Source: Candidatus Aenigmatarchaeota archaeon (GTDB lineage Archaea; Aenigmatarchaeota; Aenigmatarchaeia; QMZP01; QMZT01). From it: DNA of 64,000 bases. The number at the start of each line of letters is the position of its first letter. Position 1 is the stretch's first letter. Of this stretch, positions 3,621-53,930 are shown piece after piece. The position numbers were made by a program, and so were the translations under genes. The notes beneath the pieces were generated by a model, which saw nothing but the letters and a program-made list of their open reading frames with translations, searched no databases and was not told where the DNA came from. The DNA lies in contig WVZE01000036.1 of assembly GCA_011772645.1 (NCBI GenBank), positions 48,726-112,725 of the forward strand. Direction: 5' to 3'.

Positions 3621-4523
3621 TCACACAACCTCCAGCATCCTGTCCAGGGCCTTCTTTGCCCTTGTCCTGATGTCTTCAGGGACCGTGACTCTGTGCTGTT
3701 CCTTTTCTAGGGACTCGAGGACGGAATTGAGCGTGGTCTTCTTCATCTGCAAGCAGATGTTCGCGGGTGGCGCGCTCAGAAACGTCCTGCCCGGGAACTC
3801 CATCTTCAGCCTCTCTATCATGCCTATCTCTGTTCCTATTATGAATTTCCTCGAGGTGCTTTTTTTTAAGTGCTCCAGCATGCCGCCCGTGCTGAAAATA
3901 TTGTCCGCCAGGTCTATGACCTCTGGCCTGCATTCGGGATGAACGACAACCTCTGCGTCAGGATGGATTCCCTTGGATCGCCTGAGCATTCCGGCCGAGA
4001 ATTTATCGTGAACGTAACACCACCCCTTACAGGGGATAATGTTTTTCTTGGTGTGCCTCGAGACGTAGTTAGCGAGGTTATGATCAGGCACGAAGATGAC
4101 GTCCTTCTCGTCCAGGGAATTGACCACCTTGACGGCGTTCGAACTCGTGCAGCATATGTCTGACTCTGCCTTCACCCCTGCGCTAGTGTTAACGTAACTG
4201 ACCACGGCGGCCTCGGGGTGCTTGCCCTTCAATTTCCTCATATCCTCAACGCTAACCATGGCAGCCATGGGGCAGCGGGCCTCTATCTCAGGAAGCAGGG
4301 TGGTCTTGCCGGGGCTCAGTATGTGGGCGCACTCTGCCATGAAGTCAACGCCGCAGAAAACTATCATCTCAGCTCCTGTTTCCGAGGCCTTCTTGCTGAG
4401 GCCGAAAGAATCTCCTATGTGATCAGCTATCCTGTATATCTCGGGCCTCTGGTAGTTGTGGACTAGGATTACGGCCCCTCTCTCTTCCTTGAGAGTTCTT
4501 ATCCTGCCTATCAAATCTTTCAT
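3621..4523 (-). CDS. nadA: quinolinate synthase A
   Basis: 300-aa ORF with VILVHNYQ and the three conserved Cys regions of NadA. Confidence 0.85.
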   Translation of the reverse strand: MKDLIGRIRTLKEERGAVILVHNYQRPEIYRIADHIGDSFGLSKKASETGAEMIVFCGVDFMAECAHILSPGKTTLLPEIEARCPMAAMVSVEDMRKLKGKHPEAAVVSYVNTSAGVKAESDICCTSSNAVKVVNSLDEKDVIFVPDHNLANYVSRHTKKNIIPCKGWCYVHDKFSAGMLRRSKGIHPDAEVVVHPECRPEVIDLADNIFSTGGMLEHLKKSTSRKFIIGTEIGMIERLKMEFPGRTFLSAPPANICLQMKKTTLNSVLESLEKEQHRVTVPEDIRTRAKKALDRMLEVV

Positions 4524-13143: not shown

Positions 13144-13186
13144 TTTTCTACTTATTAATTCTTTTTTGAAAAGTATTATAACAGCC

Positions 13187-13336
13187 GGGCCTGTAGCTTA
13201 GTAGGATGTCAAATGACGCAGGTTTTACCTGCGTCCACCTGCAGTAGAGCGTCAGATTGCGGATCTGGAGGTCGCGGGTTCAAAGAGCGTCTGAAGCAGG
13301 TTTCACCTGCTTCGTTCGAAATTCCCGCCAGGCCCA
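13187..13336 (+). tRNA. tRNA-Arg (anticodon GCG) with two putative non-canonical introns: D-loop ~13206-13244 and T-loop ~13285-13322
   Basis: Acceptor GGGCCTG/CAGGCCC+A, D-stem GCTT/GAGC, anticodon stem TCAGA/TCTGG with loop TTGCGGA, T-stem GCGGG/CCCGC. Spliced length is about 73 nt. Each insert has an 8-bp hairpin (GACGCAGGTTTTACCTGCGTC and GAAGCAGGTTTCACCTGCTTC). Confidence 0.55.
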
Positions 13337-13380: not shown

Positions 13381-13515
13381 GGGGCTGTGAGGTAGTCTGG
13401 CTATCCTGGCGGGCTCCAGTCTTTCGAAAGAGTGGAGCGATGAGGGTCTTATGAGGATTAAGATCCTGTGATGAAGAGAGACCCGTATACCTGGGTTCGA
13501 ATCCCAGCAGCCCCA
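13381..13515 (+). tRNA. tRNA-Trp (anticodon CCA) with ~61-nt intron at the canonical 37/38 position (13420-13480)
   Basis: Acceptor GGGGCTG/CAGCCCC+A, D-arm AGG..CCT, anticodon stem GCGGG/CCCGT with loop CTCCAG, variable ATAC, T-arm CTGGG-TTCGAAT-CCCAG. Spliced length is 74 nt. The intron contains a UGAUGA box C-like motif. Confidence 0.65.
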
Positions 13516-13550
13516 CTTATTTTTTATTCCAGCCAGGACAAAGAATTAAT

Positions 13551-18746: not shown

Positions 18747-18917
18747 TGGATATTAACGATAAAGGAAGGTCCTACGTCCTGGAGATGGCCGCCAGATCCT
18801 ACTGTGAAGGTTTAACGGAAAGGTTTGACCAGGGATACAAAAGGCTGCTATTCCTCGCCAGGGCGTTCAACTAGAACTGTGACTCCCGGGCCGGAAATAT
18901 ACAGTCCGGGTGTTCAC

Positions 18918-20042
18918 ATGACCAAAAACAGAGGTTCGGTAGAGAATAAGTTGAAGGAGCTTCTTTCTGACAGGACTATAACCGATAGGAACAGGGACCA
19001 TATACTGAAATTCAAGGACAATTGCGTTGCTGAGGTCATGGGCAATAACAGGATTCACAAGTATCTGACCTACCTTCCCAAAATCGCTAGAATTCTTAAA
19101 AAAGACTTTAAAAAAGCTGAAAAGGAGGATATCCAGAGGGTTCTGGCTGAACTGGAGAAGAACCAGAGCTATTCTGCGTGGACGAAGTACGATTTCAGGG
19201 TGATGATAAAGCGATTCTACAAGTGGCTTGAGGGAGACGATGAAGTGTATCCGAAGAAGGTCAGATGGATCAAATCCTGGGCAGTTGTTAAAAAGGCTAG
19301 GGGGGTCCTTCCTGATGAGCTTCTCACTGTAGAGGAAATCAAGGCAATGATAGAGAATTGTTATAACATTCGCGACAAAGCGATAATCTCTGTTCTTTAC
19401 GAAAGCGGATTTCGAGTGAGTGAATTCCTTGGAATGAGGATTAAGCATGTGGATTTCTCTGGGGACCTTGCTCATATCACTTTTGAAATAGAAGGAGCTA
19501 AAACAGGAATGAGAAAGATACCTCTGATAAACTCCATTCCCTATCTGGCCAATTGGATTGGAAATCACCCAAGCCAGAATGATCCGAACTCATATGTGTG
19601 GATATCAAATGGCCACGTAAATCACAATCAACCAATGTGCTATGGCAATCTGATGGATTTGCTGAGAAAGATAGCTGTGAGGGCAGGCGTGAAGAAGAGG
19701 GTTAATCCGCACAATTTCAGGCATTCCAAGGCCACAGAGATGGCAAAATCCCTTACAGAATACCAGCTATGTCTTTACTTTGGCTGGAAGAAATCAGCAA
19801 CAGCATCCACATATGTTCATCTCGCAGGAAGGGATCTGGACATAGCAATAAGGGAACTGGCTGGATTATCAACTCCAGAGCAGAAAAAGAACGAGCTCGA
19901 GCCAATCAAATGCCCACGCTGCGAGAAGACAAACGAGCCCACAGCAAAGATGTGCAACAGATGCGGATTGATTCTGAGCGCAAAGAACGCCATGCAAACA
20001 ATGTTCTGGCGAGGAAAAGAACTGAACACTCCTCCCTCTTAG
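18918..20042 (+). mobile_element. tyrosine recombinase/integrase (phage-integrase family) with C-terminal zinc ribbon
   Basis: Catalytic motifs ...HNFRHSKATEM... and ...ASTYVHL (Tyr), a SAM-like N-domain, and a C-terminal CPRC...CNRC. It is inserted between rpl44e and rps27e. Confidence 0.75.
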
Positions 20043-20118
20043 TTTATCCCCCCTTTCCGCCCGAGCGAGTTTTACTATACAAATCGTTTTTATTGATAAC
20101 TATCTGAAATTTAATTGG

Positions 20119-20790
20119 ATGGTTTTTATGAAGAGAAGTAAAAATAATAAAATAAAGACAAAAACAGGAAAAACTCCCATCATGTACGAATCAGATTTTA
20201 TTACCAAAAAGGAGAAGAGGACTCTAATAATACAGACTGCCACTGCCGTTATTCTGGCCGTAACTGCTGTAGTCTACGCTGGGGGTGTTTTTGTCCAATA
20301 TAATACTTTTCAGAACCAGTTGGACCTAGATAATCCACATTTTGTAATATCTTTTGATCCAAATCAGGCGTGTAGGGACAGTATAAATGAACTTGATAGT
20401 CCATGGATTAGAATATCTTTGAAGAATTACGGTAAGTATCCAGCAAGTATAAAATTCAGTCCTTTGGTAGAGGGCATATCATTTGATGGGGGTGAAGAGG
20501 TAAGTTATGTAATCACTGAGGATTCAATAATGGAGAATTCAATACGACTGAGACCCAATCTTTCTACACAGAATTTCACAGTATCTTTAATGTACGATTG
20601 TACACCAATTCCAGTATCATATTATAGGTTCCCATTTTGGACTACTCGTGATGCACCCTGTAATTTCTGGACTGATTGTGGAATAAGATGCGAATATGAA
20701 AGAAAATATGGATATAACCATTGGGAAAGAGTAGGGGATATAGAAGGTTTAAGATGGTATAATGGAAAATGCAAGAGACTAGTTTTATAA
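20119..20790 (+). CDS. hypothetical membrane-anchored secreted protein (AT-rich, integrase-adjacent cargo)
   Basis: 223-aa ORF with a TM helix after a basic N-terminus. Its codon usage differs from the backbone. Confidence 0.4.
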   Translation: MVFMKRSKNNKIKTKTGKTPIMYESDFITKKEKRTLIIQTATAVILAVTAVVYAGGVFVQYNTFQNQLDLDNPHFVISFDPNQACRDSINELDSPWIRISLKNYGKYPASIKFSPLVEGISFDGGEEVSYVITEDSIMENSIRLRPNLSTQNFTVSLMYDCTPIPVSYYRFPFWTTRDAPCNFWTDCGIRCEYERKYGYNHWERVGDIEGLRWYNGKCKRLVL

Positions 20791-20845
20791 AGCCATTTGA
20801 CAAATTCATACAAGGCGCTGTGTTGGCATTTCCTTGGCGGCCAGG
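20785..20845 (+). repeat. direct repeat copy 1 (TTATAAAGCCATTTGACAAATTCATACAAGGCGCT...TCCTTGGCGGCCAG) containing a TATA-like TTTATAAA
   Basis: A 35-bp exact match to 22058-22093, plus a shared TCCTTGGCGGCCAG about 10 bp downstream. Confidence 0.7.
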
Positions 20846-20902
20846 GGTTTACGTATATTATATTGAATATTAACTTATTAACAATTAAAACAATAATTAT
20901 TT

Positions 20903-21973
20903 ATGGCCAAACATAAAAAAGCCATAATCATAATTCTTTTATTAATTGTTTTTATAGCCCTACTGTATCTTTCTATACCACTATTTATTTGCCCTATTGT
21001 TGATGGGGTTTCTTGCAATAATATTACTTTAACAGGAATCTGGAATTCTGATAATGATTATGTCATTGAAGTCAAGAATCTCAATGGCTCCTCTTTAGAT
21101 AATGATAATCCAATTTTTGAAAATGAGGCATATTGTCAAATATTTTTAAAAGAGAATGACCTGTCTTTTGATGAATTTAAAAACTACACGAGAAAAATCT
21201 CAGGTATGGTCCGCACCTACCAAGAAGTGAAAGAGACAGTTTCTAATGTATCAATACCCTATAGAATACAATTAGAATTTAACCAATGTTATCCGTTCGG
21301 GGGATTTTATTGTCCAGGATACGAAGTAAATATTGATACCCCGCCTTGTTTTTTCTATCAGATTGATAAGGAAACAGACCCAAATATTGCGTTGCAAGTA
21401 TGTGAAAAGACCACACTCGATGTCGAAGGTAGTAGCAAATGTTATAGAATAGTAGCCCTAAAATTTGCTGATGTAGATACAGATATGGCTGTTGCGTTAT
21501 GTGATAGAACAGCTATTTTCGGTATTTATGAGAAACTTAAATGTTATAAAAAAATTGTAATAAAGTTAGCTGAGAAAGACATTAGTAAAGCTATAGATAT
21601 ATGTGAAATTGAAGGCATGTATTGTCGTGGAGACGTTATAGAACACTATCAGAATACGTATAACATTACTGGAGAGAAGTTGGTTAAAGAATGTCTATAT
21701 TATGAATTAGGGGATAAAGTAACCGAGCGACTGTGTGCACACAACAGCATCTATCTTTATGGTTGGCAGGGACATCATGATTTAGTTTACATGTACGGCA
21801 ATGGTTATTCTGAGAAAGCAAAGATTCTTTGTGATAAAATGCTGCTTTTTTATGGTAGTGATGAATTATGCCTTAAAAAACGAGAAGGAACCATTAAAGA
21901 AATTAATAGGCCAGGAAGCGCTTTAAACCAATTCGTTCTGCAACACCCCGATGGTTTAGGAGAACCTCAATAG
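20903..21973 (+). CDS. hypothetical secreted cysteine-rich protein (AT-rich cargo gene flanked by the direct repeats)
   Basis: 356-aa ORF with a signal peptide and many Cys. It is bracketed by the two repeat copies. Confidence 0.4.
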   Translation: MAKHKKAIIIILLLIVFIALLYLSIPLFICPIVDGVSCNNITLTGIWNSDNDYVIEVKNLNGSSLDNDNPIFENEAYCQIFLKENDLSFDEFKNYTRKISGMVRTYQEVKETVSNVSIPYRIQLEFNQCYPFGGFYCPGYEVNIDTPPCFFYQIDKETDPNIALQVCEKTTLDVEGSSKCYRIVALKFADVDTDMAVALCDRTAIFGIYEKLKCYKKIVIKLAEKDISKAIDICEIEGMYCRGDVIEHYQNTYNITGEKLVKECLYYELGDKVTERLCAHNSIYLYGWQGHHDLVYMYGNGYSEKAKILCDKMLLFYGSDELCLKKREGTIKEINRPGSALNQFVLQHPDGLGEPQ

Positions 21974-22057
21974 TTAATTTAAAAGTAAAACATACTTGCA
22001 TAATATCGATTTAGAATGAGACTCGTGAGACAACCAAATTGTGCAGAACCAAGTTAA

Positions 22058-34996: not shown

Positions 34997-35372
34997 CCAT
35001 ATTCTTCACCTCCTTTCAGTTTGAAGCAGTTTGTCTGCTTCTTTCGCTCTTGAGGGCCAGGACCGGGATTTGCACCCGGTTCGGAGGATCCACAATCTTC
35101 CGTGCTACTACATACACCATCCTGGCCGTTGCTGAAAACCAGAACTACGAAATTCCTCTTCAGATCAAAAACAAGTTCGATCTCTACACCTTCCTCTAGA
35201 CCGAAATTCTTCCTGATCTCAGAAGGGATCGAAATCCTTCCCTTGGAATCTATCTTTATCTTCTTCGAAATTAACCCCTCACTTTCCAGAAAACCAGAAA
35301 AAGCAAGTTTGGAATCCGGGCTAAGAAATTCTTTCCTTCTACGCGTTATGAACCGAATCGCCCGTTTTCCTC
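34993..35372 (-). pseudogene. AbrB/SpoVT(MazE)-like swapped-hairpin DNA-binding ORF lacking a canonical in-frame start (probable homopolymer frameshift)
   Basis: The minus-strand frame encodes ...KIDSKGRISIPSEIRKNFGLEEGVEIELVFD.... The only ATG is in the +1 frame (MRKTGDSVHNA*), across an A4/T4 run near 35362-35366. The stop overlaps the NTase gene start. Confidence 0.4.
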
Positions 35373-42097: not shown

Positions 42098-42250
42098 ATG
42101 AAATATTTACTGAAAAACTTAAGAGGAAGTAAAGTTGCTCTTTACGGACTTGGTCTGGTGGCAGGAGGCGTAGTTTTTAAAATAGCACAGAAAAATCTTA
42201 AAAAATATCCTGTAAATCCGAAGAAGGCAAGAAAGAATGGCGCCTACTAG
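42098..42250 (+). CDS. small membrane protein (paralog pair member)
   Basis: MKYLLKNLRGSKVALYGLGLVAGGVVF. Upstream, GATTTTTAAAACTTACT is conserved with the previous gene. Confidence 0.3.
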   Translation: MKYLLKNLRGSKVALYGLGLVAGGVVFKIAQKNLKKYPVNPKKARKNGAY

Positions 42251-45200
42251 TAATATTTATTCTCTATCCTTGCGAATTTCAGGTAGATCAGGGCAGCGAG
42301 TATCAGGAGGAATACAACCGCGATCGGGGAGAGCCCGGGGAATTCAGGGACGAAGACCGTGGTCACCCATACGCTGTCCTTGTCCTTAAGATCCGAGTCC
42401 ACGAAAGAGCTTGCGGTCACTGTCACATTATATCTAAGCTGTTCGGTGTACAAAATCCTGACTTTAATTTTTCTCTCTTCCTGGGGGTTCAGGTCTATAT
42501 CAGCCTCTGGCTGGTTGTTTATCGCGAATATGGCATTTGAAGGTTCCAGCTTCAAATGAACCGTGTCAAACTTCAGCTGTATGTTCCTCACAGCAACGTC
42601 CAGGGTGTTAAACTTCCCTATCATGGGCATCACGGATTCCGCCTCGAAATTCGCCAGGGGATGCTCGTACATTGTAAGTGAGTAGTAACCTGATGGCGGG
42701 TTCCTCTCCGTTTCTGATGTGTAGGAGTTCAACGTGTAGGAATAGTAATCGATTTTTGTATCGTTTGGGTAAGGTCCCAGCGTTACGACACACATGTTGT
42801 CAAGCAAACACGTCAATGTATCCCATGTCCCGGGTTCGAATCTTGGGTGATAGACTCTGTAGTTAATGGTCATGTTGAGCAGATCCCTGGTCATGTTCAT
42901 GAGTGTTATCGAAACATTCCTGTCCGCACCCGTCTTCCCTCTGTCCCTTATAATGTTGCCGAACTGGTCTATCACGTAAAGTTCCGCCAGCCCGGGGATA
43001 AAGATCGTGGTGTTGGTGTCGTATGTTGTCTTGACCTCCCAGTTGCCTGCGTTGTCCTTGGCGAGCGAGCGGAAGTAGAATCTGTAATTGTTTATCCCGC
43101 CCAGGGGGCTTCCTGCCTCTTCATATGCGTTGAATAATGTGAAAGTCTCTGTCGTACAACTAAACAGCTCCTGCCATGAAGTTAAATTCACGGTATCATT
43201 GTACCGGAATTCTATCTTGTAGCAGTCAATGCCGCTTCCGCTGTCGCTCCCTCCCCAGTAGAGATCGAAAGCGTTTGACTGGGTATAGAAGGGGAGAGTG
43301 GAAACAAGGGAAACAGGCGGTGTGGTGTCGTTCGTGTACTGCCAGCCCGTGTTTATGTATCCTGTCCCTCTCCCGGCCTCGTCGTAAAGGAATGCGTACA
43401 CGCTGTAACTCTTCTGACTGCTTCCTGTGTCTACGGTCCATATCTCGTCAACGCTCGCTCCCGTACAGCTGCCCGAGCAGGAAACCGATTGGATTGTCAG
43501 GTAATTATAGTTCCACATGTTGTCCGTGATGATTCCCGTATCAACATCAACGCTGGATTTTATCTCGTTACCGCTCGCGCATATTTCACCCCAGTTGCAT
43601 CCGCAGCTTTCCGGTGCGCAGCCGCTTGTGAATGTGATGTATTGTCTTGAGGGGGTTGAGACCGAATCAGTGTGCTGTATTCTATGGGTTGTTGTCCCTG
43701 AATTGACCCAGCAGATTTGGTTGGACGTGTCCTCGTAATCACACCCTGAAACCGAGTAGGAAACAAAGGTGGGGTTGGTCTTGTCGATTAATACCTGGGT
43801 TGATTGCGTGCTTTCCTGGTTGCCCGCGTTGTCCGTTGAGCGGTATCTCACGTAGTTGGTTCCTTCGTCCGAAACAATGAAGGAAGAAGAATACGGTATG
43901 GAGGGCGAGCAAGTGTCTGTGGTGTCCACGCAGTACGTTGTGTCAGCGCATCCCGAGCCTCCCGGGTCCGAGCAGGTCAGGGTGACCTGGACGTTCGTTG
44001 TGTACCAGTTGTTCCAGCCCATGGTTCCCGAAAGACTGATGGAAGTGGAGGGAGGCGTCGACTCCAGAATTATGGAATCGCTGTCCTGAATCACGCTGAG
44101 CAGATTGTTCCTAACTTCGTAATAGACTGTTTTTGTTCCGTCGCCCGCTGTCAAAGTCCAGGCTTTCGTTGGCGCACATGCCTCCCAGGTGGTCCAGCTA
44201 CCTCCCTCGTTTCTGTATCTGCAGTCCTTAATGCCCGGACCGACTGGGTCTGAATAGGCCAAATTAAGTGTTACGGAGTTCGAATTCGTATAGGTATCGT
44301 CATTGTTTATAAATATTGATGCCGTCATGCCTACCACTCCTATCAGGTACTGCCAGCCCGTGTCTATGTATCCGGTTTCTCTCCCGGCCTCGTCGTAGAG
44401 GAATGCGTATACGTTATAACTCTTCTGGTTGTTTCCTGTATTTACGGTCCATATCTCGTCAACGCTCGCTCCCGTACAGATGCCCGAGCAGGAAACCGAT
44501 TGGATTGTCAGGTAATCATCGTTCCACATGTGGCTTGTCGTGACTCCCGTATCGACATCAACGCTGGATTTTATCTCGTTTCCTGAGGCGCAGAGCTCGA
44601 TGTTGTTACATCCGCAGTTGTTTGGTGCGCAGCCGCTTGCGAATGCGATGTATTGTCTTGAGGGGGTTGAGACCGAATCAGTGTGCTGTATCTCGTGGGT
44701 TGTTATTGTCCCCGGATTGACCCAGCATGTTTGGGTGGTTGCGTTTTCGTAGTCGCATCCTGAAACCGAGTAGGAAACAAAGGTGGGGTTGGTCTTGTCG
44801 ATTAATACCTGGGTTGATTTCGTGCTTTCCTGGTTGCCCGCGTTGTCCGTTGAGCGGTATCTCACGTAGTTGGTTCCCTCAGGGGAAACGGCGAATGTGG
44901 ATGAATATGATATGGAGGGGGAGCATGTGTTTGTTGAATCTATGCAGTATCTTGTGAAATCGCAGTCAGAACCTCCTGAATCCGAGCAGGTAAGGGTGAC
45001 CTGGACGTCCGTTGTGTACCAGTTGTTCCAGCCCATGGTACCCGAAAGGCTGATGGAAGTGGAGGGGTCTGTTGTGTCCACCATAAGACGGGAGGAAACA
45101 TCCGTGTCGTAGTTCCCAGCCGAATCCTCGACCCACAAACACAGCCAGTCATTACGGTTGGTGTTTACCGTTATAACCGAACTTGTTGTTGAAAATGTGT

Positions 45201-48200
45201 AGCTTGATTTTGAACCGGAACACGTCCCGTCTGAGTCGAAGTAATACCACTTGGTTGATATGCAGCCGGAGCCTCCTGAATCCGAGCAGGAGAGTGTTAT
45301 ATCGTCTGAATTCACCCATGTTGTCGATTCGCCGGTTATGCTTGCAGTTGGATTTGTCTTGTCCACCCTGAATTCGACAGGGCTTGAAAATCCCGTGTTG
45401 CCCACGTTGTCCCTCGCCGCTGCGCACACCCACCTGTGGCTGGAGATGGTCTGGGGGGAGGCTAGGGTGTAGGAAGAGTAGGTGGAGGGGCAGCTCCCCG
45501 GGTTGGATGCGTACGTTACCAATCTGTAAGAACCTGCGTTGCAGCCGGAGCCTCCCGGGTCAGAGCAGGAAACGCTCGCCGTGGCGTCTGTGTTCTGCCA
45601 GGAAGCGGGAGCTCCCGTTACGGAGACCGAAGGGGAGGTTTTGTCCACTGTGAACGAATGGTCCGTTCCGTCGAATCTCAGAGACCATCCTCCGTTGGGC
45701 TCGAAGTCTGACCAGAGCCCGCAATAATCGACTGTCCAAGTCCCTCCCGGATCGCCCGATTGTATGGTGTAGGAGAAGGTCACACTAGTTCCCCAGTTGT
45801 TGAAGTATATTATGGAACCGCCCGGCTTTGCGAGTCTGCATTCGGAAATTATGGTGAATCCTGATGGGCTTCTTGAAACGCCTGAGAGGGAGATCTGGAT
45901 GGTGTCCCCTACTGAGTAATAGCCTGAGGGATAGGTGTATGAACTCCAAGTTCCGGTTACCTGCGTTGAGGTTCCTCCTTTCGTGCAGGAGGTGTAGCTG
46001 TTCGAACACACGCGATTGGAGTCGCATTTGTAGGAACCCGTCCTCCCGCAGGTGGAGTCTACCCAGATTCTCTGGTTACCAACACCCGGGCTGGGGGCGG
46101 CGCAGTCCAAAAGACATCCTCCCTGAGCGTAACAGTTCTCGCTGGAGTCGCAGATACCTGGTAGACCTATGCACGGGTCTCCGCATATCAGGCCTTGGCA
46201 TGCCCCTGTTTCCAAACGGAAGTTATTGCTCTGTTTTGTGGACTCCTGGTTGCCCACGCTGTCTCTCGAGTAGAAGCATACAACCTTGTTGCAGATCTGG
46301 CCTGCCGGGCATGTCACGCTTCCCGACGTTCCCGTGGTGAATCCTGTTGTCCCGCAGGACCCTCCCTGGTTGATAACCCTGTAATAAGTGGATGAACATC
46401 CCGAACCTCCTGAATCAGAGCAGGTCAGGGTGAAGGAAACGGAAGTTGTGGAATAACTCCCGCCGTTGGGTGATATGGATGTGGTCGGACCTGATACATC
46501 CCTCCATTCGCCGCCAACACACTGGGAACCCGCCATTCCCGGACGAGCAGCTCCTTCGCTGTAACATGCACTTTGCCAAACACAATCATTCGCGTTGTTG
46601 CAGCATGCATCATCACTCGAACTGGAAGTGCAGGCGTATCCGTCGCACTGCCTTGTTCTCCTGTATTCGTTCGAATCATCCCCGCAGCAGGTTGTTGCGT
46701 CCACTTCTCCTCCTATGTTCCAGCGGTTTGAACCGGCGATAGCTCCGCATTGCGTGCTTCCCGCGTCTCCTCCCTGCCACGTCCCTGCGTTGCAGTAGTT
46801 CCTGCTGGGGATGCTTCCTCTTGTTGAGGTTGATGAATAACAGGTGGAGTAGTAGACGCAGTCGTTGTTCGCGTTACAGCAGGCGTCGTCCGAGGATGAG
46901 GAGGAATAGGTCGAATCTGTTCCAGCGACTCTCGTTCTCCTGTTTTCACCCGAATCGTCGCCGCAACATGCGGTCGCTGCTACTTCGCCGCCAATTGCCC
47001 AGAATCCACCGCCGCAACCGCATAAATATGAATTGTAATCACCATTGGTCCGAAAAACTGCATCATAACATGCAGTGTAACCTCCGGCACACCAATCCTC
47101 TCCGGCATCGTCTCCGCAACAATCTCCCACTGAATCATCCCAGCAATTGCTTTCTCCTCCAGAACAGGTTCCCTGTGTCCCGCTCACTTCGCACTCGCAG
47201 GCACTCTGAACATTGTCAGGTTCCCTGGCAGGACCAGACCTATCACAACCATTTGCATTAATACCATCACAATAACCTTGAGTCTGATATCCGAATCCAC
47301 CGTTATTGTAAGCATTATCGGCTAGGTCATTACTTGTACATGCCCAAGCGGTGTTACATAGGTAACCAGTTCCCCTTATTGTATAAGGATGGCTGCTTGT
47401 ATCACAGCATACCCCACTGGAGCATTCATCATTAGCCGCCCATATTCCGTTTGATTGACATATAATGGCACCGCTTAAAGCAGTTTGACCACTTGAATAA
47501 CATACACCATTATAAACGCAATCACTACTTGAACTGCAGCAAGCATCGTCTGAACTGCTACTGCTACATCCGGAATCACATTGTCTTGTCCTTCTATTCT
47601 CTCCGGAGTCGTCACCGCAGCAGGTTGTTGCTGCCACTTCTCCTCCTATGTTCCAGCGGTTTGAACCGGCGATAGCTCCGCATTGCGTGCTTCCCGCGTC
47701 TCCTCCCTGCCACGTCCCTGCGTTGCAGTAGTTCCTGCTGGGGATGCTTCCCCTTGTTGAGGTTGATGAATAACAGGTGGAGTAGTAGACGCAGTCGCTG
47801 CTCGCATCACAGCAGGCGTCGTCCGAACTTGAGGAGGAATAGGTCGAATCTGTTCCCGCGACTCTTGTCCTCCTGTATTCGCCCGAATCGTCACCACAAC
47901 ATGTGGTCGCGGCGACTTCTCCTCCTATGTTCCACCTTCCCGTTGCCTCGCATGCATCGCAGTAAGCTTGACCTGCATCAGAATCATACCACGTACCGCT
48001 GCCGCAGTAAGCATCGTCTGAACGGCATGCCCCCGAAGAATAACAGGTGTTTGAATAGACGCAGTCACCGCCCGCATTACAACAGGCGTCGTCCGAACTT
48101 GAGGAGGAACACCAGGAATTGCACACCCTTGTTCTCCTGTATTCGCCCGAATCATCGCCGCAGCAGACACTCCCGGCGACCTCGCCTCCTATGTTCCAGC

Positions 48201-49992
48201 GGTTTGAACCGGCGATAGCTCCGCATTGCGTGCTTCCCGCGTCTCCACCCTGCCACGTCCCTGCATTGCAGTAAGCCTTGTTGGGGACTGCCGGGGGGGA
48301 GGTTCCTCCGGATGATGTGCACGCATCATTGTATGTGCAATCTGTGTTTGCATTACAGCAGGTTGTAATTCCGTCGTTGTAACCTGAAGGGGCGTCGGTT
48401 CCGCCAGTTTCTGTCCTTCTGTACTCGCCCGAATCGTCACCGCAGCAGTTTGTCGCTGCTACCTCACCGCCGATTGCCCAATTACCACCACCACAACTGC
48501 ATAAATATGAATTGTAATCACCATTGGTCCGAAAAACTGCATCATAACATGCAGTGTAACCTCCGGCACACCAATCCTCTCCGGAGTCGTCGCCGCAACA
48601 ATCTCCTACTGACTCATCCCAGCAATTGCTTTCCCCTCCAGAACAGGTTCCCTGGGTTCCGCTCGCTTCACATTCGCAGGCGCTCTGGTAATTGTCAGGC
48701 TCTCTGGCAACGCCCGAGACGTCACAACTCCCGCCGCCGTCACAGTATCCCTGGGTCTCGTACCCGAACCCGCCATTGTTATAAGCGTTATTGGTTTGCT
48801 CGGCGCTCGTACACGCCCAAGCGGTGTTGCATGGTGTGTTCGCCTGGATGCCGCAGGTGCTTGTCAGAACATCTCCTGCTGGAGCAGTTACAGGATACTG
48901 CTCATAATAACTTGTAGCTGCCGTGTCGCAAACGCCGCTCCCGTCGCATTCAGAGTAACGAATATATCCTGAACAACTTCCGGCAGTACAAAAATAATTG
49001 GTATTATCATCACACGAGAGTATTTCTGAAGTTGCATCAACGCTGCTTGCAGAATAACAGGCTTTGTAAGCGGGCGTGTTGTAAATGGCGCGTGCGCATT
49101 CGCCTAATCCGTCACAAACGCCCGTTCCCCCATCAATTGCGCACTGGGATGCAATGCAGGGACCTCCCCCGAAACATCTGTTGCCCGGGTCTGTCCCGGC
49201 CGGCGCCGGGTCGCAGTCTGGGTAGGCGTCGTAACATCCGTAACAAAGCGCGCAGTTGTCTGCCCTGCCATCGGAATAAACCCCACAGGCCCCGCCCGTG
49301 CAGGTGCCTGTCAGGCAGTCAGTTGTGCTGCACTCGCTGCGAGGATCGGTTCCGTCAGGTACGTTTTCGCATAATACATCAGTATCATAACACCCTTGAC
49401 AGATCCCGCAGTTAGCCTTCCTTCCGTCAGAATAGGCAGCACATCCTCCACCAGCAGCACAACTACCTGTTCTGCATTGCGATGTATCACAATCATTATT
49501 TGGGTCTGTTCCTGCATTTGCATCCTGACAACCACCAGCCCCATTACAAACCCTGCAGGTGGCAGGGCAATCATCGTTTGGATCTGTTCCTGCAGGAATA
49601 AAACTCCCGCTGCTGTCGCAGCAGGTAGTTCCCGGGGTGCATGCTGTACCGCAGATGCCATTCACACGGGTCCCGGAACAACATCTGCAGTCAGTAGGAG
49701 CGGAATTACCATCCAAAATACAACACACGCCCCTCCCGCTACATGTTTTGCAAAATGAGGCACCAGGACAAGTTGCGGCTTCTTCGTAGCAATTACTGGT
49801 ATCCTCCCCGGGTGGACAGAATCTTGTTGATGCACGCCGGCAAACTATTAAAATATCGCCAGTGGAGCAATAATTTGAGCCGCAATTAGCCGCACTAGTA
49901 CAACCATCCAGACAAGCAGCGCTAACCCCGTAACTCAAAACATTTAAAAGGATAACCGAATAAAACACCGCGATGACACACTTTGCCTTCAT
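42247..49992 (-). CDS. giant (2581 aa) secreted cysteine-rich surface protein with Ig-like repeats and C-terminal EFPGL-TM-basic sorting-signal-like tail
   Basis: Signal peptide. The N-terminal ~1000 aa are Cys-rich with at least 6 CCGDDSGEYRRTR repeat units. It has a conserved ~170-aa CGLWSDF module and two near-identical ~250-aa repeats. Ig-like units carry Y.STDNAGN.E. The C-terminus reads VPEFPGLSPIAVVFLLILAALIYLKFARIENKYY. Confidence 0.7.
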   Translation of the reverse strand: MKAKCVIAVFYSVILLNVLSYGVSAACLDGCTSAANCGSNYCSTGDILIVCRRASTRFCPPGEDTSNCYEEAATCPGASFCKTCSGRGVCCILDGNSAPTDCRCCSGTRVNGICGTACTPGTTCCDSSGSFIPAGTDPNDDCPATCRVCNGAGGCQDANAGTDPNNDCDTSQCRTGSCAAGGGCAAYSDGRKANCGICQGCYDTDVLCENVPDGTDPRSECSTTDCLTGTCTGGACGVYSDGRADNCALCYGCYDAYPDCDPAPAGTDPGNRCFGGGPCIASQCAIDGGTGVCDGLGECARAIYNTPAYKACYSASSVDATSEILSCDDNTNYFCTAGSCSGYIRYSECDGSGVCDTAATSYYEQYPVTAPAGDVLTSTCGIQANTPCNTAWACTSAEQTNNAYNNGGFGYETQGYCDGGGSCDVSGVAREPDNYQSACECEASGTQGTCSGGESNCWDESVGDCCGDDSGEDWCAGGYTACYDAVFRTNGDYNSYLCSCGGGNWAIGGEVAATNCCGDDSGEYRRTETGGTDAPSGYNDGITTCCNANTDCTYNDACTSSGGTSPPAVPNKAYCNAGTWQGGDAGSTQCGAIAGSNRWNIGGEVAGSVCCGDDSGEYRRTRVCNSWCSSSSSDDACCNAGGDCVYSNTCYSSGACRSDDAYCGSGTWYDSDAGQAYCDACEATGRWNIGGEVAATTCCGDDSGEYRRTRVAGTDSTYSSSSSDDACCDASSDCVYYSTCYSSTSTRGSIPSRNYCNAGTWQGGDAGSTQCGAIAGSNRWNIGGEVAATTCCGDDSGENRRTRQCDSGCSSSSSDDACCSSSSDCVYNGVCYSSGQTALSGAIICQSNGIWAANDECSSGVCCDTSSHPYTIRGTGYLCNTAWACTSNDLADNAYNNGGFGYQTQGYCDGINANGCDRSGPAREPDNVQSACECEVSGTQGTCSGGESNCWDDSVGDCCGDDAGEDWCAGGYTACYDAVFRTNGDYNSYLCGCGGGFWAIGGEVAATACCGDDSGENRRTRVAGTDSTYSSSSSDDACCNANNDCVYYSTCYSSTSTRGSIPSRNYCNAGTWQGGDAGSTQCGAIAGSNRWNIGGEVDATTCCGDDSNEYRRTRQCDGYACTSSSSDDACCNNANDCVWQSACYSEGAARPGMAGSQCVGGEWRDVSGPTTSISPNGGSYSTTSVSFTLTCSDSGGSGCSSTYYRVINQGGSCGTTGFTTGTSGSVTCPAGQICNKVVCFYSRDSVGNQESTKQSNNFRLETGACQGLICGDPCIGLPGICDSSENCYAQGGCLLDCAAPSPGVGNQRIWVDSTCGRTGSYKCDSNRVCSNSYTSCTKGGTSTQVTGTWSSYTYPSGYYSVGDTIQISLSGVSRSPSGFTIISECRLAKPGGSIIYFNNWGTSVTFSYTIQSGDPGGTWTVDYCGLWSDFEPNGGWSLRFDGTDHSFTVDKTSPSVSVTGAPASWQNTDATASVSCSDPGGSGCNAGSYRLVTYASNPGSCPSTYSSYTLASPQTISSHRWVCAAARDNVGNTGFSSPVEFRVDKTNPTASITGESTTWVNSDDITLSCSDSGGSGCISTKWYYFDSDGTCSGSKSSYTFSTTSSVITVNTNRNDWLCLWVEDSAGNYDTDVSSRLMVDTTDPSTSISLSGTMGWNNWYTTDVQVTLTCSDSGGSDCDFTRYCIDSTNTCSPSISYSSTFAVSPEGTNYVRYRSTDNAGNQESTKSTQVLIDKTNPTFVSYSVSGCDYENATTQTCWVNPGTITTHEIQHTDSVSTPSRQYIAFASGCAPNNCGCNNIELCASGNEIKSSVDVDTGVTTSHMWNDDYLTIQSVSCSGICTGASVDEIWTVNTGNNQKSYNVYAFLYDEAGRETGYIDTGWQYLIGVVGMTASIFINNDDTYTNSNSVTLNLAYSDPVGPGIKDCRYRNEGGSWTTWEACAPTKAWTLTAGDGTKTVYYEVRNNLLSVIQDSDSIILESTPPSTSISLSGTMGWNNWYTTNVQVTLTCSDPGGSGCADTTYCVDTTDTCSPSIPYSSSFIVSDEGTNYVRYRSTDNAGNQESTQSTQVLIDKTNPTFVSYSVSGCDYEDTSNQICWVNSGTTTHRIQHTDSVSTPSRQYITFTSGCAPESCGCNWGEICASGNEIKSSVDVDTGIITDNMWNYNYLTIQSVSCSGSCTGASVDEIWTVDTGSSQKSYSVYAFLYDEAGRGTGYINTGWQYTNDTTPPVSLVSTLPFYTQSNAFDLYWGGSDSGSGIDCYKIEFRYNDTVNLTSWQELFSCTTETFTLFNAYEEAGSPLGGINNYRFYFRSLAKDNAGNWEVKTTYDTNTTIFIPGLAELYVIDQFGNIIRDRGKTGADRNVSITLMNMTRDLLNMTINYRVYHPRFEPGTWDTLTCLLDNMCVVTLGPYPNDTKIDYYSYTLNSYTSETERNPPSGYYSLTMYEHPLANFEAESVMPMIGKFNTLDVAVRNIQLKFDTVHLKLEPSNAIFAINNQPEADIDLNPQEERKIKVRILYTEQLRYNVTVTASSFVDSDLKDKDSVWVTTVFVPEFPGLSPIAVVFLLILAALIYLKFARIENKYY

Positions 49993-50019
49993 TAATTAAT
50001 AATTATTGATTTCTATTAA

Positions 50020-53000
50020 TTAATCCTTTATTTTGACGAGTTTTACATAGATAAGAACTGATAGTAACAACAAAAATACTATTGCAGGCCAGTTCAGGCC
50101 CGGGAAGTCCGCGGGCGTCGCGATTTTTATCTCCAGCCAGTCGCTGTCCGCAAGCTGGGGGTCGGTTAGGGAATTCGCATTCACGGTCAGATTGAAATTC
50201 CCCAAAGATCTCGGGTATATTCTTGCGATCACCTCTCTGTATTCCTGGGGGTTCATCTGCAGATCCAGGGTTCGGTTTCCCGTTTCCGCGAACATCGCCT
50301 CCTGCATGTTCAGTGAGAGGCGAATCGTGTCCGCTATCAGCTGGGAATTTCTGACCAGAATTTTTATAATTCCCCCTCTTCCTATGGTCATGTGGAATTT
50401 CTCATCCACAGCGAACTTTACCATGGTCAGGAAGATAGTGGTGTACGTGTCGAATCCTGTCTTTGTTTCCTGGTTTCCCGCGTTGTCCCTGGCAAGCGAG
50501 CGGAAGTAGAAGGTGTAGCCGTCCGGGTTTGAACCTGCCGCCTGCTCAGCGTCGAATATCGTGCTTGTTTGTTTCGTGCATTCCCCATCGGAAAAATTTA
50601 TGTTCATAACAGGACTTTCCGGTTCGCTCTGCGGCCTGTACTTGTACTGTATAATGTAGCAATCCAAACCGCTCTCGTCATCCGTCCCGTTCCATGAGAG
50701 GTTAAAAGACTTTTGGGCCATGTACGTTGATAGCAACCGAACTCTGGAGGTTGGGGAGACCTTGTCAACCTTGAATTCAACAGGGCTTGAGAATCCCTCG
50801 TTTTCCGCTCTATCCTTTGCTGCCCCGCACACCCAGACGTGGCTCGAAATGGTCTGGGGGGAGGGAAGGGTGTAGGAGGCGTAGTCAGAGGGACAGCTTC
50901 CGGGGTTTGAATCGTAGGTTATCAATCTGTAAGAACCTGCGTTGCAGCCGGAGCCTCCCGGGTCAGAGCAGGAAACGCTCGCCGTGGCGTCTGTATTCTG
51001 CCAGAGTGGGGCAACATCGTCCACAGAGACTATTGGGGGGATTTTGTCAACCTTGAATTCGACAGGGCTTGAGAATCCCTCGTTGCCCATGTTATCCCTC
51101 GCCGCTGCGCACACCCACCTGTGGCTGGATATTGTCTGGGGGGAGGGAAGGGTGTAGGAGGCGTAGTCAGAGGGACAGCTTCCGGGGTTTGAATCGTATG
51201 TCAAAAGCATGTAGGTTGAGGGGTCGCATGGGCCTGTATTGCTCACGCATGTCACGTTCGCAGTGGCGTCTGTGTTTTGCCAGGAAGCGGGAGCCCCTGT
51301 CACGGAAACTGTCACCTGGATCTCATCCACTGTGAACGTCCGATCCGTACCGTCAAATTCGAGAACCCATCCGGTGTTGGACTCGAAGTCTGACCAGAGT
51401 CCGCAATAATCAACTGTCCATGTTCCGAGCGGATCCGCATCCTGTATGGTGTAGGGGAAGGTCACACTTGTTCCCCAGTTGTTGAAGTATATTGAAGATC
51501 CGCTCGGCTTTACGAGTCTGCATTCCGAGAGTATGGTGAAACCCGATGGCGAGTTCGAAACCCCGTTCAGTCTTATGTTTATGGTCTGGCCTGCATAGTA
51601 TGTTCCGCTCGGAGGAACGTAAGAAGTCCAGTCCCCTGTCACCTGTCTTGGAATTCCCCCCATCGTGCATGAGGTGTAGCTGTTGGAGCACACGTGCCGT
51701 GGACCGCACTTGTAGGAGCCCGTCCTCCCGCAGTTCGAATCTACCCATCTTCTTTCAGCATTGGGTCCTGTTGAAGGGACGGAACAATCCAGGAAGCATC
51801 CTCCGCCTGAATAACATTCATCCTCTCCGTTGCAGATTCCTCCCGGGCATGGCGTTCCGCACGGCTGTTGGTAGCAAACATTCGCTGTTATGCCGTCGCT
51901 CGAGCCCACGTCGCTCCACAGGCCCGAATTGCTCCTGGCCCTGACATTGAAATAATAGGTTTCGCCGTTGGAAAGGCTGAGACCGCTTCTGGTGACCTCC
52001 CTTAGCAACCCTCTTGAGGTCCAGCCGACTTCGCTGTTCCACCCGGAATTCGGGTATCTGGCGGTTCCTATTGCGTATTGATATTCTGCTATCCCCGAGC
52101 TTGAAGTGGACTGTGTCCAGGTCGCATGGAGAGTTGTAAGCGAGGAGGTGTAATCACCGTCATCCGTCACGACCGGTGTTGTGGGCGTCCCGTCATCCAC
52201 CATCAGCCGGGAGGAAACATCCGTGTCGTAGTTCCCAGCCGAATCCTCGACCCACAGGCACAGCCAGTCGTTATGAACTCCTGTTATGGTAAGCGTGTTG
52301 CTCGTTGTAGAGAGGTAGTAGGAGGATTTGGAAGAGGAACACGTTCCGTCTGAGTCGAAGTAATACCATCTGGTTGATAAGCAGCCTGAATCTCCGGTAT
52401 CGGTGCAAACGAGGTTTACGGTATCCGATGTAACCCACACCGTTGACTCCCCGGTTATGTCAGCCACCGGGTTTATCTTATCAATCCTGAATTCGACAGG
52501 GTTTGAAACCCCTGTGTTGCCTGCGTTGTCCCTCGCCGCTGCGCACACCCAGACGTGGCTGGAAATGGTCTGGGGGGAGGAGAGGGTGTAGGAGGCGTAG
52601 TCAGAGGGACAGCTTCCGGGGTTGGATGCGTACGTTCTCAGTCTATACGTCCCTGCATCGCAGCCGGAGCCTCCTGAATCCGAACAGGAAACGCTCGCCG
52701 TGGCGTCTGTATTCTGCCAGGAAGCTGGAGCTCCCGTTACGGAGACCGAAGGGGAGGTTTTGTCAATCCTTACCCGGGTTGATCTCGTGCTTTCCTGGTT
52801 GCCAGCGTTGTCCGTTGAGTAGTATCTCACGTAGCGTGTTCCCTCGCTGGAAATTGTGAACTGGGAAGAATAAACTGTTGAGGGCGAGCAAGTGTTTGAG
52901 GTGTCCACGCAGTATCTCGTGGCTGAACAGCCAGAACCACCCTGTCCGTCCGAGCAGGTCAGGGTTACATCGACGTTTGTCACATACCAACCGCTCAAAC

Positions 53001-53901
53001 CCTGGGTCCCGGAAAGCGTGATGGTGGTGATCGGAGGATCTGTATCTTCCGGGCAAAGGACCGGGTCAGTCTCGCACCCAGGCAAGCCGGCACTGCAGGT
53101 CTCGGTGAAGGCACAGGTCTGATCGGTAGCCCAGAGACCATATACCGTGCTTCCCGTACACTGAGCCGAATTCCCTGAACAATACTGGTTGTTAGTCTGC
53201 CTTTCCAGCGTGGCTCCGCACCCGTTAGAATCCCCTCCCACGCACCTGTATTCATTCCAAGTGTCGCAAACCTCGGATGTGGATTCATAGCAACCGGAAA
53301 GCGTTCCTGTTGTGCAGCAGGGACCTGACCAACATTGAGAGGTGATGCAGACTCCTCCGCAGCATGACCCACAACATGAAGTCGAAGCCGAACATGTGCA
53401 TCCTATGTTAGGAGGTTTTCTGCAAACAAGCCCGCACGCAGCCCAGCAAGTATCGGTGCCGCAGCAACCCGTCTCATCCATCAAACACCCGCCATCTCCA
53501 TGGGTATGTGACGCCGTTCCCTGCCAGCTGGGCCCGGAAGCCTGTATGCCAGCGCAATCGCATTCGTTCCTTCCCTCCCAGCTGCACGTCCAGATGCTGC
53601 ACCTGGTTGCGCTCGGGCAATCCCTCCGGGCGAGAGTGTTACCGCAAAATATCCCTCCTTCGCCACACCATGCTCCGCACGTATCCGTTCCCTGGTGGTC
53701 CCAGTCACAGTCACACCAGGTACAGCCGTTGCTAATGCAGTCATCCTTCGAATCTTCGTAATCTCCGCAGTTTTTGTCCGCGGGTCCCCTGCATGTAAAG
53801 ACCCTGTGTATCGTGGCAGAAGCCGAATAAGCTGTTGTGAATATAAAAAGGAGGATCACCACCGATATAACAAAAAATTTGTAAATGTCTTTTTTCATCA
53901 A
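50020..53901 (-). CDS. giant (1293 aa) paralogous cysteine-rich surface protein with DFPGL-TM-basic C-terminal tail
   Basis: Signal peptide and a Cys-rich N-domain. There are three internal copies of the GAPASWQNTDATA...SNPGSCPSDYASYTL.SPQTISSH.WVC unit. A ~200-aa block is about 85-90% identical to the 2581-aa neighbour. The C-terminus reads ATPADFPGLNWPAIVFLLLLSVLIYVKLVKIKD. Confidence 0.7.
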   Translation of the reverse strand: MMKKDIYKFFVISVVILLFIFTTAYSASATIHRVFTCRGPADKNCGDYEDSKDDCISNGCTWCDCDWDHQGTDTCGAWCGEGGIFCGNTLARRDCPSATRCSIWTCSWEGRNECDCAGIQASGPSWQGTASHTHGDGGCLMDETGCCGTDTCWAACGLVCRKPPNIGCTCSASTSCCGSCCGGVCITSQCWSGPCCTTGTLSGCYESTSEVCDTWNEYRCVGGDSNGCGATLERQTNNQYCSGNSAQCTGSTVYGLWATDQTCAFTETCSAGLPGCETDPVLCPEDTDPPITTITLSGTQGLSGWYVTNVDVTLTCSDGQGGSGCSATRYCVDTSNTCSPSTVYSSQFTISSEGTRYVRYYSTDNAGNQESTRSTRVRIDKTSPSVSVTGAPASWQNTDATASVSCSDSGGSGCDAGTYRLRTYASNPGSCPSDYASYTLSSPQTISSHVWVCAAARDNAGNTGVSNPVEFRIDKINPVADITGESTVWVTSDTVNLVCTDTGDSGCLSTRWYYFDSDGTCSSSKSSYYLSTTSNTLTITGVHNDWLCLWVEDSAGNYDTDVSSRLMVDDGTPTTPVVTDDGDYTSSLTTLHATWTQSTSSSGIAEYQYAIGTARYPNSGWNSEVGWTSRGLLREVTRSGLSLSNGETYYFNVRARSNSGLWSDVGSSDGITANVCYQQPCGTPCPGGICNGEDECYSGGGCFLDCSVPSTGPNAERRWVDSNCGRTGSYKCGPRHVCSNSYTSCTMGGIPRQVTGDWTSYVPPSGTYYAGQTINIRLNGVSNSPSGFTILSECRLVKPSGSSIYFNNWGTSVTFPYTIQDADPLGTWTVDYCGLWSDFESNTGWVLEFDGTDRTFTVDEIQVTVSVTGAPASWQNTDATANVTCVSNTGPCDPSTYMLLTYDSNPGSCPSDYASYTLPSPQTISSHRWVCAAARDNMGNEGFSSPVEFKVDKIPPIVSVDDVAPLWQNTDATASVSCSDPGGSGCNAGSYRLITYDSNPGSCPSDYASYTLPSPQTISSHVWVCGAAKDRAENEGFSSPVEFKVDKVSPTSRVRLLSTYMAQKSFNLSWNGTDDESGLDCYIIQYKYRPQSEPESPVMNINFSDGECTKQTSTIFDAEQAAGSNPDGYTFYFRSLARDNAGNQETKTGFDTYTTIFLTMVKFAVDEKFHMTIGRGGIIKILVRNSQLIADTIRLSLNMQEAMFAETGNRTLDLQMNPQEYREVIARIYPRSLGNFNLTVNANSLTDPQLADSDWLEIKIATPADFPGLNWPAIVFLLLLSVLIYVKLVKIKD

Positions 53902-53930
53902 TTATATAATTGGTTATGGGTAATTATTAG

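Follow-up and report, generated by a model that had tools for sequence, protein, structure and literature searches.

Two BHB-type introns, very probably, in a tRNA-Arg(GCG) gene of an Aenigmarchaeota archaeon, and a hairpin cassette shared among pre-tRNAs of its relatives

In the Thermoproteales, multi-intron tRNA genes and non-canonical bulge-helix-bulge (BHB) introns were reportedly described by Sugahara et al. in 2008. Non-canonical tRNA introns, including those at positions 20/21 and 59/60, as well as multi-intron tRNAs and relaxed BHB motifs, are established (PMC4090602), and introns of the Thermoproteales are known to be transposed between tRNAs by an unknown mechanism (PMC4033280, PMC4090602); the gain and movement of protein-spliced introns in archaea is an unsolved question (PMC4090602). 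Among DPANN archaea, endonucleases with an extra loop correlate with a larger number of disrupted tRNA genes and also with predicted sets of tRNAs that are incomplete (PMC5829648). No description of tRNA introns in Aenigmarchaeota was found in the literature that we searched. Here we analyzed a 64-kb stretch of DNA, hereafter the window, on contig JABAOC010001901.1 of GCA_012975005.1, the metagenome-assembled genome (MAG) of an uncultured Candidatus Aenigmarchaeota (DPANN) archaeon, in which positions 13187-13336 of the plus strand hold a tRNA-Arg(GCG) gene interrupted in both its D-loop and its T-loop. We consider it very probable that this is a functional gene with two BHB-type introns, one in the D-loop at about position 20/21 and one in the T-loop at 59/60, and that the two carry a hairpin cassette that has spread among pre-tRNAs.

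The window gene resembles the multi-intron tRNAs of the Thermoproteales (PMC4090602, PMC4033280) in having several short introns outside position 37/38, in its relaxed BHB motifs and in being missed by ordinary tRNA finders, but, unlike those crenarchaeal genes, it belongs to a DPANN lineage, the Aenigmarchaeota. A relaxed D-loop intron together with a second intron in the same tRNA is also known from the pre-tRNA-Glu(UUC) of Methanopyrus kandleri, which has an HBh' intron (PMC5829648), and many disrupted tRNA genes are found in DPANN archaea that have loop-bearing EndA endonucleases (PMC5829648; ARMAN-2 epsilon2 EndA, PMC3239211). The kind of gene is therefore a known one, and what is new here is the lineage, a visible swap of introns between neighbouring genes, and the occurrence of intron-type cassettes in tRNA leaders.

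ARAGORN with default settings and Rfam at its gathering threshold gave no tRNA at 13187-13336, a tRNA-His being their sole call in the 64 kb, and Rfam at a relaxed threshold gave a partial tRNA match that skipped a 41-nt block. The original prediction of a tRNA-Arg(GCG) with inserts in the D-loop and T-loop was borne out by excision of 13206-13244 and 13285-13322, which left a 73-nt cloverleaf that ARAGORN called as tRNA-Arg(GCG); an uninterrupted call was obtained only on sequence lacking both inserts, and ARAGORN found no tRNA after either one alone had been excised. When the D-loop 5′ cut was moved to lie after 13206, the resulting 74-nt tRNA was equally valid in ARAGORN. The precursor can be spelled GGGCCUG-UA-GCUU-AGUAGGA[...]UAGAGC-G-UCAGA-UUGCGGA-UCUGG-AGGUC-GCGGG-UUCAAA[...]U-CCCGC-CAGGCCC-A. 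Related contigs that were compared with the window are labelled here with L-numbers (L002, L043 and so on). Exon 1 (13187-13206) comprises the 5′ strand of the acceptor stem, U8 and A9, the 5′ strand of the D-stem and D-loop positions 14-20, and is 95% identical to its counterpart in L043. Exon 2 (13245-13284), 97.5% identical to that of L043, runs from the 3′ end of the D-loop through the 3′ strand of the D-stem, the anticodon arm with the anticodon GCG at 13259-13261, the variable loop and the 5′ strand of the T-stem to T-loop positions 54-59, and exon 3 (13323-13336) supplies U60, the 3′ strands of the T-stem and acceptor stem and the discriminator A, with CCA not encoded. All of these lie on the plus strand, as does a promoter-like block at 13150-13184 (ACTTATTAATTC..., with TTATTAAT at 13152-13159), which lies about 35 nt upstream of the tRNA, is kept upstream of all eight orthologous tRNA-Arg genes and is a putative archaeal TATA box with B recognition element (BRE); the 5′ leader in the window is very short. 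The local gene order is rpoE′ - spt4 - S24e - S27ae - tRNA-Arg - tRNA-Trp - pilin-like genes. The gene sequence is identical in an independent Logan assembly (ERR2564001, L002) and is therefore not an assembly artefact.

Relatives were collected via S24e/S27ae and by a metagenome pattern scan, which yielded eight distinct tRNA-Arg(GCG) genes in S24e-S27ae-tRNA-Arg-tRNA-Trp synteny (window, L043, L005, L003, L020, L009, L017 and L006). An intron-less syntenic orthologue was sought to fix the D-loop splice site and none was found among the eight, all of which carry a D-loop insert (37-64 nt). T-loop inserts (38-57 nt) are present in six, and the T-loops of L006 and L009 are intact; that of L009, UUCAAAU, is the same as the spliced window T-loop. 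Cut at the sites predicted by BHB geometry, all eight genes were called tRNA-Arg(GCG) by ARAGORN. Exon identity is 93-100% across the eight species and the inserts vary freely in sequence and length, while the S27ae proteins of the same species are 59-80% identical to that of the window. In the closest relative, L043, the exons are 93-97.5% and the adjacent coding DNA 70-80% identical to the window; its tRNA-Arg D-loop intron is 92% identical (35 of 38 positions), whereas its T-loop intron, at 55%, is unrelated. Conserved exons and cloverleaves combined with freely varying inserts indicate a functional interrupted gene rather than a pseudogene. More distant Aenigmarchaeota (L011, L013, L069 and L070) have an L44e-S27ae-FBPase synteny with no tRNA there. 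In a close relative, L004, the promoter-like box past S27ae is followed by a short hairpin and GGAUGAUGA, which is box-C-like, with no tRNA-Arg before the contig ends.

A BHB motif consists of an outer helix (h), a 4-bp central helix (H) and two 3-nt bulges, each of which is cleaved after its second base. This rule agrees with the definition in PMC5829648, where an inner helix (h') completes the strict form, hBHBh', and relaxed forms are HBh', hBH or BHL. A BHB-like motif, in relaxed form, can be drawn at each of the junctions, in agreement with the BHB-type introns originally proposed. At the D-loop junction, h is the D-stem, H pairs 13201-13204 (GUAG) with 13239-13242 (CUGC) in 4 bp including one G.U, the bulges are 13205-13207 and 13243-13245, and h' pairs 13208-13209 with 13237-13238. 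At the T-loop junction, h is the T-stem, H pairs 13279-13282 (UUCA) with 13317-13320 (CGAA) in three Watson-Crick pairs and an A.C, the bulges are 13283-13285 and 13321-13323, and h' pairs 13286-13288 with 13314-13316. By this geometry the 5′ cut at the D-loop falls after 13206, a single base beyond the boundary given earlier, so that both introns are 38 nt long with the same layout (1+3+4+21+3+4+2). Of the insert bounds first given, those of the T-loop (13285-13322) stand, while the D-loop insert of 39 nt (13206-13244) becomes an intron of 38 nt (13207-13244); base 13206, whose equivalent is A in seven of the eight orthologues, counts as exonic under BHB geometry only, and the intron positions are fixed to within 1 nt. 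Intron 1, between D-loop positions 20 and 20a/21, consists of a 1-nt bulge base, the 3-nt 5′ strand of h' (two of three positions pair), the spacer AAAU, a hairpin at 13215-13235 (GACGCAGGU-UUU-ACCUGCGUC), the 3-nt 3′ strand of h', CUGC and AG. Intron 2, between T-loop positions 59 and 60, consists of G, AGC, GUCU, a hairpin at 13293-13313 (GAAGCAGGU-UUC-ACCUGCUUC), GUU, a segment CGAA at 13317-13320 that we call H3, as we do its counterpart in other introns, and AU. Thermodynamic folding supports the acceptor stem, the T-stem, both hairpins, the D-loop H (pair probability 0.98) and the T-loop h' (0.94-0.96). The relaxed-motif register describes both window junctions and also fits nine D-loop and 14 T-loop introns.

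We analyzed the covariation of the splice helices on junction segments aligned by hand at fixed offsets, with the 3′ register of L009 shifted by 2 nt. A 4-nt segment pairing with D-loop positions 15-18 or T-loop positions 54-57 in the BHB register is retained in every insert. Across the nine D-loop introns, H is 97% paired, with GC/GU/AU, UG/CG/UA and CG/AU/UA among the pair types, and h' is 85% paired; double changes occur in two of the four H pairs and in all three h' pairs, that is, in five of seven taken together. None of 500 shuffles matched this covariation, and shifted registers pair at 22-48%. Judging from these sequences, compensatory changes have preserved the exon-intron helix in the D-loop homologues. 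The T-loop H is 93% paired over 14 introns from five tRNA species, compared with 54-57% when slid by one position, and its variation is confined to position 57 (A-U in four, G.U in four, G-C in three and a mismatch in three).

The perfect 8-bp hairpin that had been claimed for each insert is present in both, and is 9 bp long when the closing U-A pair is included. A core identity of 19/21 had also been claimed, and alignment gives 18/21; two of the three differences amount to a single compensatory change from C-G to A-U. With up to three mismatches allowed, the core pattern occurs in the 64 kb only in these two inserts, compared with none in 100 shuffles. The covariance model R1 has three matches in the window, all inside a tRNA gene or within about 10 nt of one: copy 1 (38.6 bits, E 1.6e-8), copy 2 (38.8 bits, E 1.4e-8) and a weaker third copy (GAAGCAG-ACAAA-CUGCUUC; 23.8 bits, E 4.8e-4) at 35019-35045, in the 3′ trailer of the tRNA-His (35054-35126, minus strand, called by default ARAGORN and by Rfam), where the hairpin lies 12 nt past the tRNA 3′ end and just ahead of the ribosome-binding site of the next gene. 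The R1 match of this third copy is on the plus strand, and its assignment to the minus, tRNA-sense strand comes from reading the sequence. Rfam assigned no family to the hairpin at the relaxed threshold. Ten hairpin copies are 100% paired over 9 bp with double changes in five of the nine pairs. G.U on the tRNA-sense strand accounts for every one of the six non-Watson-Crick cells, a pattern that mildly favours a constraint at the RNA level.

Matches to R1 cluster in the leaders, introns and trailers of pre-tRNAs, although the copy counts derive from a biased set of loci. Copies were found in the 5′ leaders of the tRNA-Arg genes of L005, L009 and L020, of the tRNA-Asp of L046 and of another tRNA of L030, and as two tandem copies in that of a gene of L015 that reads as tRNA-Lys(CUU)-like. 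D-loop introns contain them in the window, L043, L017, L020 and the tRNA-Lys of L046, whose anticodon-loop intron holds another, and T-loop introns in the window tRNA-Arg, the L043 tRNA-Trp, the L046 tRNA-Asp and a long L046 intron; trailer copies occur in L046 and at the window tRNA-His. The flanks are conserved as well (...GCGUAU-hairpin-GUUCGAA...), so the unit is a whole cassette of about 37 nt and extends beyond the hairpin alone, and the T-loop introns of the window tRNA-Arg and the L046 tRNA-Asp are identical at 28 of 38 positions.

Further occurrences were noted alongside these. Leader cassettes, in which the hairpin is followed by N-UUCGA(A/G)A, lie between the promoter-like box and the tRNA 5′ end (L005:2405-2433, L009:2334-2362, L015:1220-1285, L020:2053-2081, L030:1818-1846 and L046:9545-9672); the L046 leader has three, one of them enclosed by an 8-bp helix of neighbouring UUCGAGA-like tails. 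In an AT-richer lineage, homologous T-loop introns of about 190 nt (L027:3880-4130; L038, minus strand, about 900-1250; L066, minus strand, about 130-560) contain a GACGCAGGC/GCCUGCGUC hairpin in the opposite orientation with an AAA loop. By sequence reading the L027 host is a tRNA-Lys(UUU), in a region where a 5S rRNA is followed by two interrupted tRNAs, and the L038 host is apparently a tRNA-Trp. Three similar hairpins of the form ACAAAU-GAYGUAGGU...ACCUACRUC-CAC, spaced 100-200 nt apart with the opposite strand coding-like, occur in L051 (13950-14285), L062 and L065, and their 3′ flank, CCACCUG, is similar to window intron 1. Intergenic copies of GACAYAGGC-UUU-GCCUGUGUC are nested in a larger hairpin with arms GACGCAGG / CCUGCGUC (L036:10660-10720 and L056:2225-2290). 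A pattern scan of viral contigs gave one match, which was unrelated, and most of the 50 matches of the metagenome pattern scan were coincidental, in unrelated and mostly coding-like contexts.

The position and sequence of the T-loop intron point to its movement between two adjacent tRNA genes. In L043 it is the tRNA-Trp that holds, at 59/60 of its T-loop, an intron (AGCGUAUGAAUCAGGUUUCACCUGCUUCGUCCGAAAU) identical to that of the window tRNA-Arg at 34 of 38 positions, so that the two tRNA-Trp T-loops differ by a precise 37-nt presence (L043) or absence (window). The T-loop of the L043 tRNA-Arg contains instead a 50-nt intron of a different family (GAAACCACCAGCGGGUUUC), which it has in common with the L017 tRNA-Arg and of which a looser form (GAAACCUCAAGCGGGUUUC) occurs in the tRNA-Trp of L020 and the core motif in that of L017. 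The H3 of the window intron, CGAA, makes four of four Watson-Crick pairs with the UUCG of tRNA-Trp and has an A57.C mismatch with the UUCA of its present host tRNA-Arg, which indicates that the intron has relocated. The simplest reading of the sequences would be that it arose in a T-loop of the UUCG type and then entered tRNA-Arg, where it took the place of an earlier intron; alternatively, an ancestor may have had the intron in both tRNA-Arg and tRNA-Trp, followed by differential loss. Of the duplication or mobility that had been suggested to explain the shared hairpin core, mobility is thus upheld by the 34/38 match, and a recent mutual duplication of the two window introns is not. The idea that intron 2 is a recent copy of intron 1 was rejected, only four of 17 positions outside the core being shared; the two introns are old paralogues and not recent duplicates, since each has its own orthologue in L043. 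Near-identical introns in different tRNAs and gain or loss that differs between close relatives are also features of intron transposition in the Thermoproteales. Unlike there, the window and L043 show a direct swap, at one and the same loop position, between tRNA genes that are neighbours, the H3 of the window is of the donor type and still mismatched, and the module is also found in 5′ leaders and trailers. A target-site duplication (GTTCAAA ... GTTCGAAAT) was considered as evidence for a DNA transposon and rejected, because UUCGAA is self-complementary, so that any strand able to pair with the T-loop inevitably looks like it.

Two other motifs recur in introns at these sites. A second intron family, with the core GAAACC-ACCAGCG-GGUUUC, is represented, in different genomes, among the T-loop introns of both tRNA-Arg and tRNA-Trp (L043:8640-8690, minus strand; L017:475-530 and 705-730; L020:2415-2470), and a third motif (AACCUUUUCCG-R-AAGCUU) is found in a tRNA-Arg D-loop intron, a tRNA-Trp T-loop intron and a tRNA-Lys-like T-loop intron (L009:2383-2400 and 2665-2685; L015:1390-1410).

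Under the explanation that we prefer, splicing would proceed as follows. The last six nucleotides of each intron would supply H3 (4 nt) and the 2-nt part of a bulge, and H3 would pair with a loop stretch that lies a little 5′ of the splice site, D-loop 15-18 in one intron and T-loop 54-57 in the other. The outer helix would be the D-stem or the T-stem, and the inner one the short intron helix capped by the stable 9-bp hairpin. Each splice site would then fall in a 3-nt bulge, with 4 bp between the two bulges, a predicted substrate for archaeal EndA. An RtcB-type ligase would then join the three exons into a 74-nt tRNA, with CCA added afterwards. The cassette would be a portable unit of about 37-38 nt (short stem, 4-nt bulge, 9-bp hairpin, short stem, H3 and 2 nt), which may have spread in the clade through the removable parts of pre-tRNAs, namely introns at three positions, 5′ leaders and trailers. 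The window T-loop copy most likely came from the neighbouring tRNA-Trp, with its UUCG T-loop, and would have replaced a different intron.

Several observations weigh against this explanation. The T-loop H has a pair probability of only 0.02 in the thermodynamic fold, a value that we take as a limit of nearest-neighbour models on isolated 3-bp helices and not as counter-evidence, and the minimum-free-energy fold favours a 5-bp D-loop helix with a 1-nt bulge. The D-loop h' has 2 bp only, with an A.A mismatch abutting the 3′ bulge and the outer helix; the central helix of the T-loop motif has 3 bp plus the A.C, and its h' has 3 bp. Neither junction is a strict hBHBh', and we judged the motifs to be relaxed because the fold lacks the T-loop H and prefers the alternative D-loop helix. 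The covariation depends on hand-built, fixed-offset alignments in which L009 was moved 2 nt on the 3′ side, and at the T-loop it is weak, since this loop is nearly invariant. Splicing itself and the precise points of cleavage are predictions from sequence, and a Pfam scan of 30 open reading frames (ORFs) of the window found neither EndA nor RtcB; it found no reverse transcriptase either. Finally, hairpin copies between protein genes (L004:205-233 and L011:1935-1963) and hairpins inverted relative to the host tRNA (L027, L038 and L066) would fit a DNA-level repeat as well.

That the gene is a decaying pseudo-tRNA with two unspliced insertions is most improbable: it would account for the failure of standard tRNA finders and for the relaxed BHB motifs, but not for exons that are 93-100% conserved over eight species whose S27ae proteins have diverged to 59-80%, for eight perfect cloverleaves out of eight, for exon-intron pairing that covaries, or for a conserved promoter-like box. 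The hairpin may be a functional RNA element under selection, one to which a factor of pre-tRNA processing (an endonuclease, a chaperone or a modification enzyme) binds or which clamps the fold for it, in line with the shared protein-binding element that had been suggested; its recurrence in leaders and introns would then reflect a need for it there, and not selfishness or mobility. Retention of the stem through five compensatory pairs, with G.U as the only exception on the sense strand, would fit such an element, as would the location of nearly all copies, in tRNA sense, in segments that are co-transcribed and then removed, and the conservation of the 5′ and 3′ flanks (GCGUAU... and ...GUUCGAA). 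However, same-site introns of L003, L005, L009 and L043 differ in sequence and lack the module, so the hairpin is dispensable for splicing at those sites, and copies also lie between protein genes (L004, L011) and, inverted, within introns (L027, L038, L066). We regard it as a possible explanation, though not a likely one.

Those same spacer copies, and the inverted copies in the T-loop introns of about 190 nt, would be natural if the hairpin were a DNA palindromic repeat, similar to repetitive extragenic palindromic (REP) sequences or miniature inverted-repeat transposable elements (MITEs) or serving as the operator of a dimeric DNA-binding protein, which inserts anywhere but is retained only where DNA is dispensable; in such compact genomes that means chiefly the introns and leaders of tRNAs. 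As DNA, the stem forms an almost perfect palindrome, the leader copies lie directly downstream of the promoter-like box, and bacterial REP sequences and MITEs are likewise short, multi-copy, imperfectly conserved palindromes in non-coding places. Against this, all six imperfect pairs are G.U on the sense strand, which makes them A.C on the other, the sense orientation is strongly favoured, and all three R1 matches in the window are at tRNA genes; moreover, the whole 38-nt intron moved as a unit that included the host-pairing H3. Unlike REP sequences and MITEs, the copies of this family are biased to the pre-tRNA sense strand, tolerate G.U and are embedded with a splice helix that pairs with the host, and no terminal repeats or target duplications were seen beyond the self-complementarity of UUCGAA, nor did the Pfam scan of the 30 window ORFs show a transposase nearby. 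A DNA-level repeat seems to us doubtful. An equally doubtful proposal is that the cassette is an autonomous mobile element at the RNA level, which would hop by reversed or mis-joined EndA/RtcB splicing and then be fixed in DNA, with the difference between the window and L043 as a recent hop from tRNA-Trp to tRNA-Arg. Our preferred explanation of a functional gene with two BHB-type introns is compatible with transfer at either the RNA or the DNA level, and the direction of transfer suggested above is likewise probable rather than fixed.

The neighbouring tRNA-Trp(CCA) at 13381-13516 (plus strand) was also missed by default ARAGORN and Rfam, and ARAGORN with intron search proposed an implausible 44-nt intron and a long variable arm. 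Excision of 61 nt at 37/38 (13420-13480) leaves a normal 75-nt tRNA-Trp, the T-loop of which is intact. Two box-C-like motifs, GCGAUGA and GUGAUGA, lie in this intron, as does a GGGUCU that could pair with the 3′ splice region; no CUGA box D was seen. The intron recalls the tRNA-Trp introns of euryarchaea, which carry a C/D-box small RNA (sRNA). For introns 1 and 2 of the tRNA-Arg, a C/D-box or kink-turn interpretation was rejected on reading the sequence, as no box C and no sheared G.A were seen; intron 2 has CUGA (13291-13294) without a box C, intron 1 has only AUGA, and the stem bases adjacent to these motifs are Watson-Crick paired. In L003 the tRNA-Trp (4285-4385) apparently has two T-arm inserts, at 53/54 and 59/60, in addition to an anticodon-loop intron. 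Elsewhere in the window, a tyrosine recombinase of the Phage_integrase family (18825-20042) is followed by a stretch of 34% GC at 20-22 kb with ORFs lacking a Pfam family, and the region 18825-22000, which may be an integrated element, lies about 5 kb from the tRNA pair. On the minus strand, 42247-58502 is taken up by three successive ORFs of very large size (2581, 1293 and 1523 aa).

Of the three tRNA genes in the window, two escaped the standard finders. It is therefore likely that the tRNA complements of DPANN MAGs are underestimated, and with them the completeness and codon-usage inferences that rely on these complements. No report of a hairpin or intron module in tRNA leaders or trailers was found in the literature examined, Fujishima 2010 lying outside it; the leader copies described here suggest an exchange of sequence between introns and leaders, which bears on ideas about introns, split tRNAs and leader-mediated trans-splicing. 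The clade offers a clean natural experiment, in which a 38-nt intron is found at the same loop position in either of two adjacent tRNA genes of relatives with about 80% DNA identity, and in which the donor-type splice helix is still unadapted to its new host, tRNA-Arg. If the cassette were indeed a mobile element at the RNA level, this would be the first tractable system for the mechanism of BHB-intron transposition.

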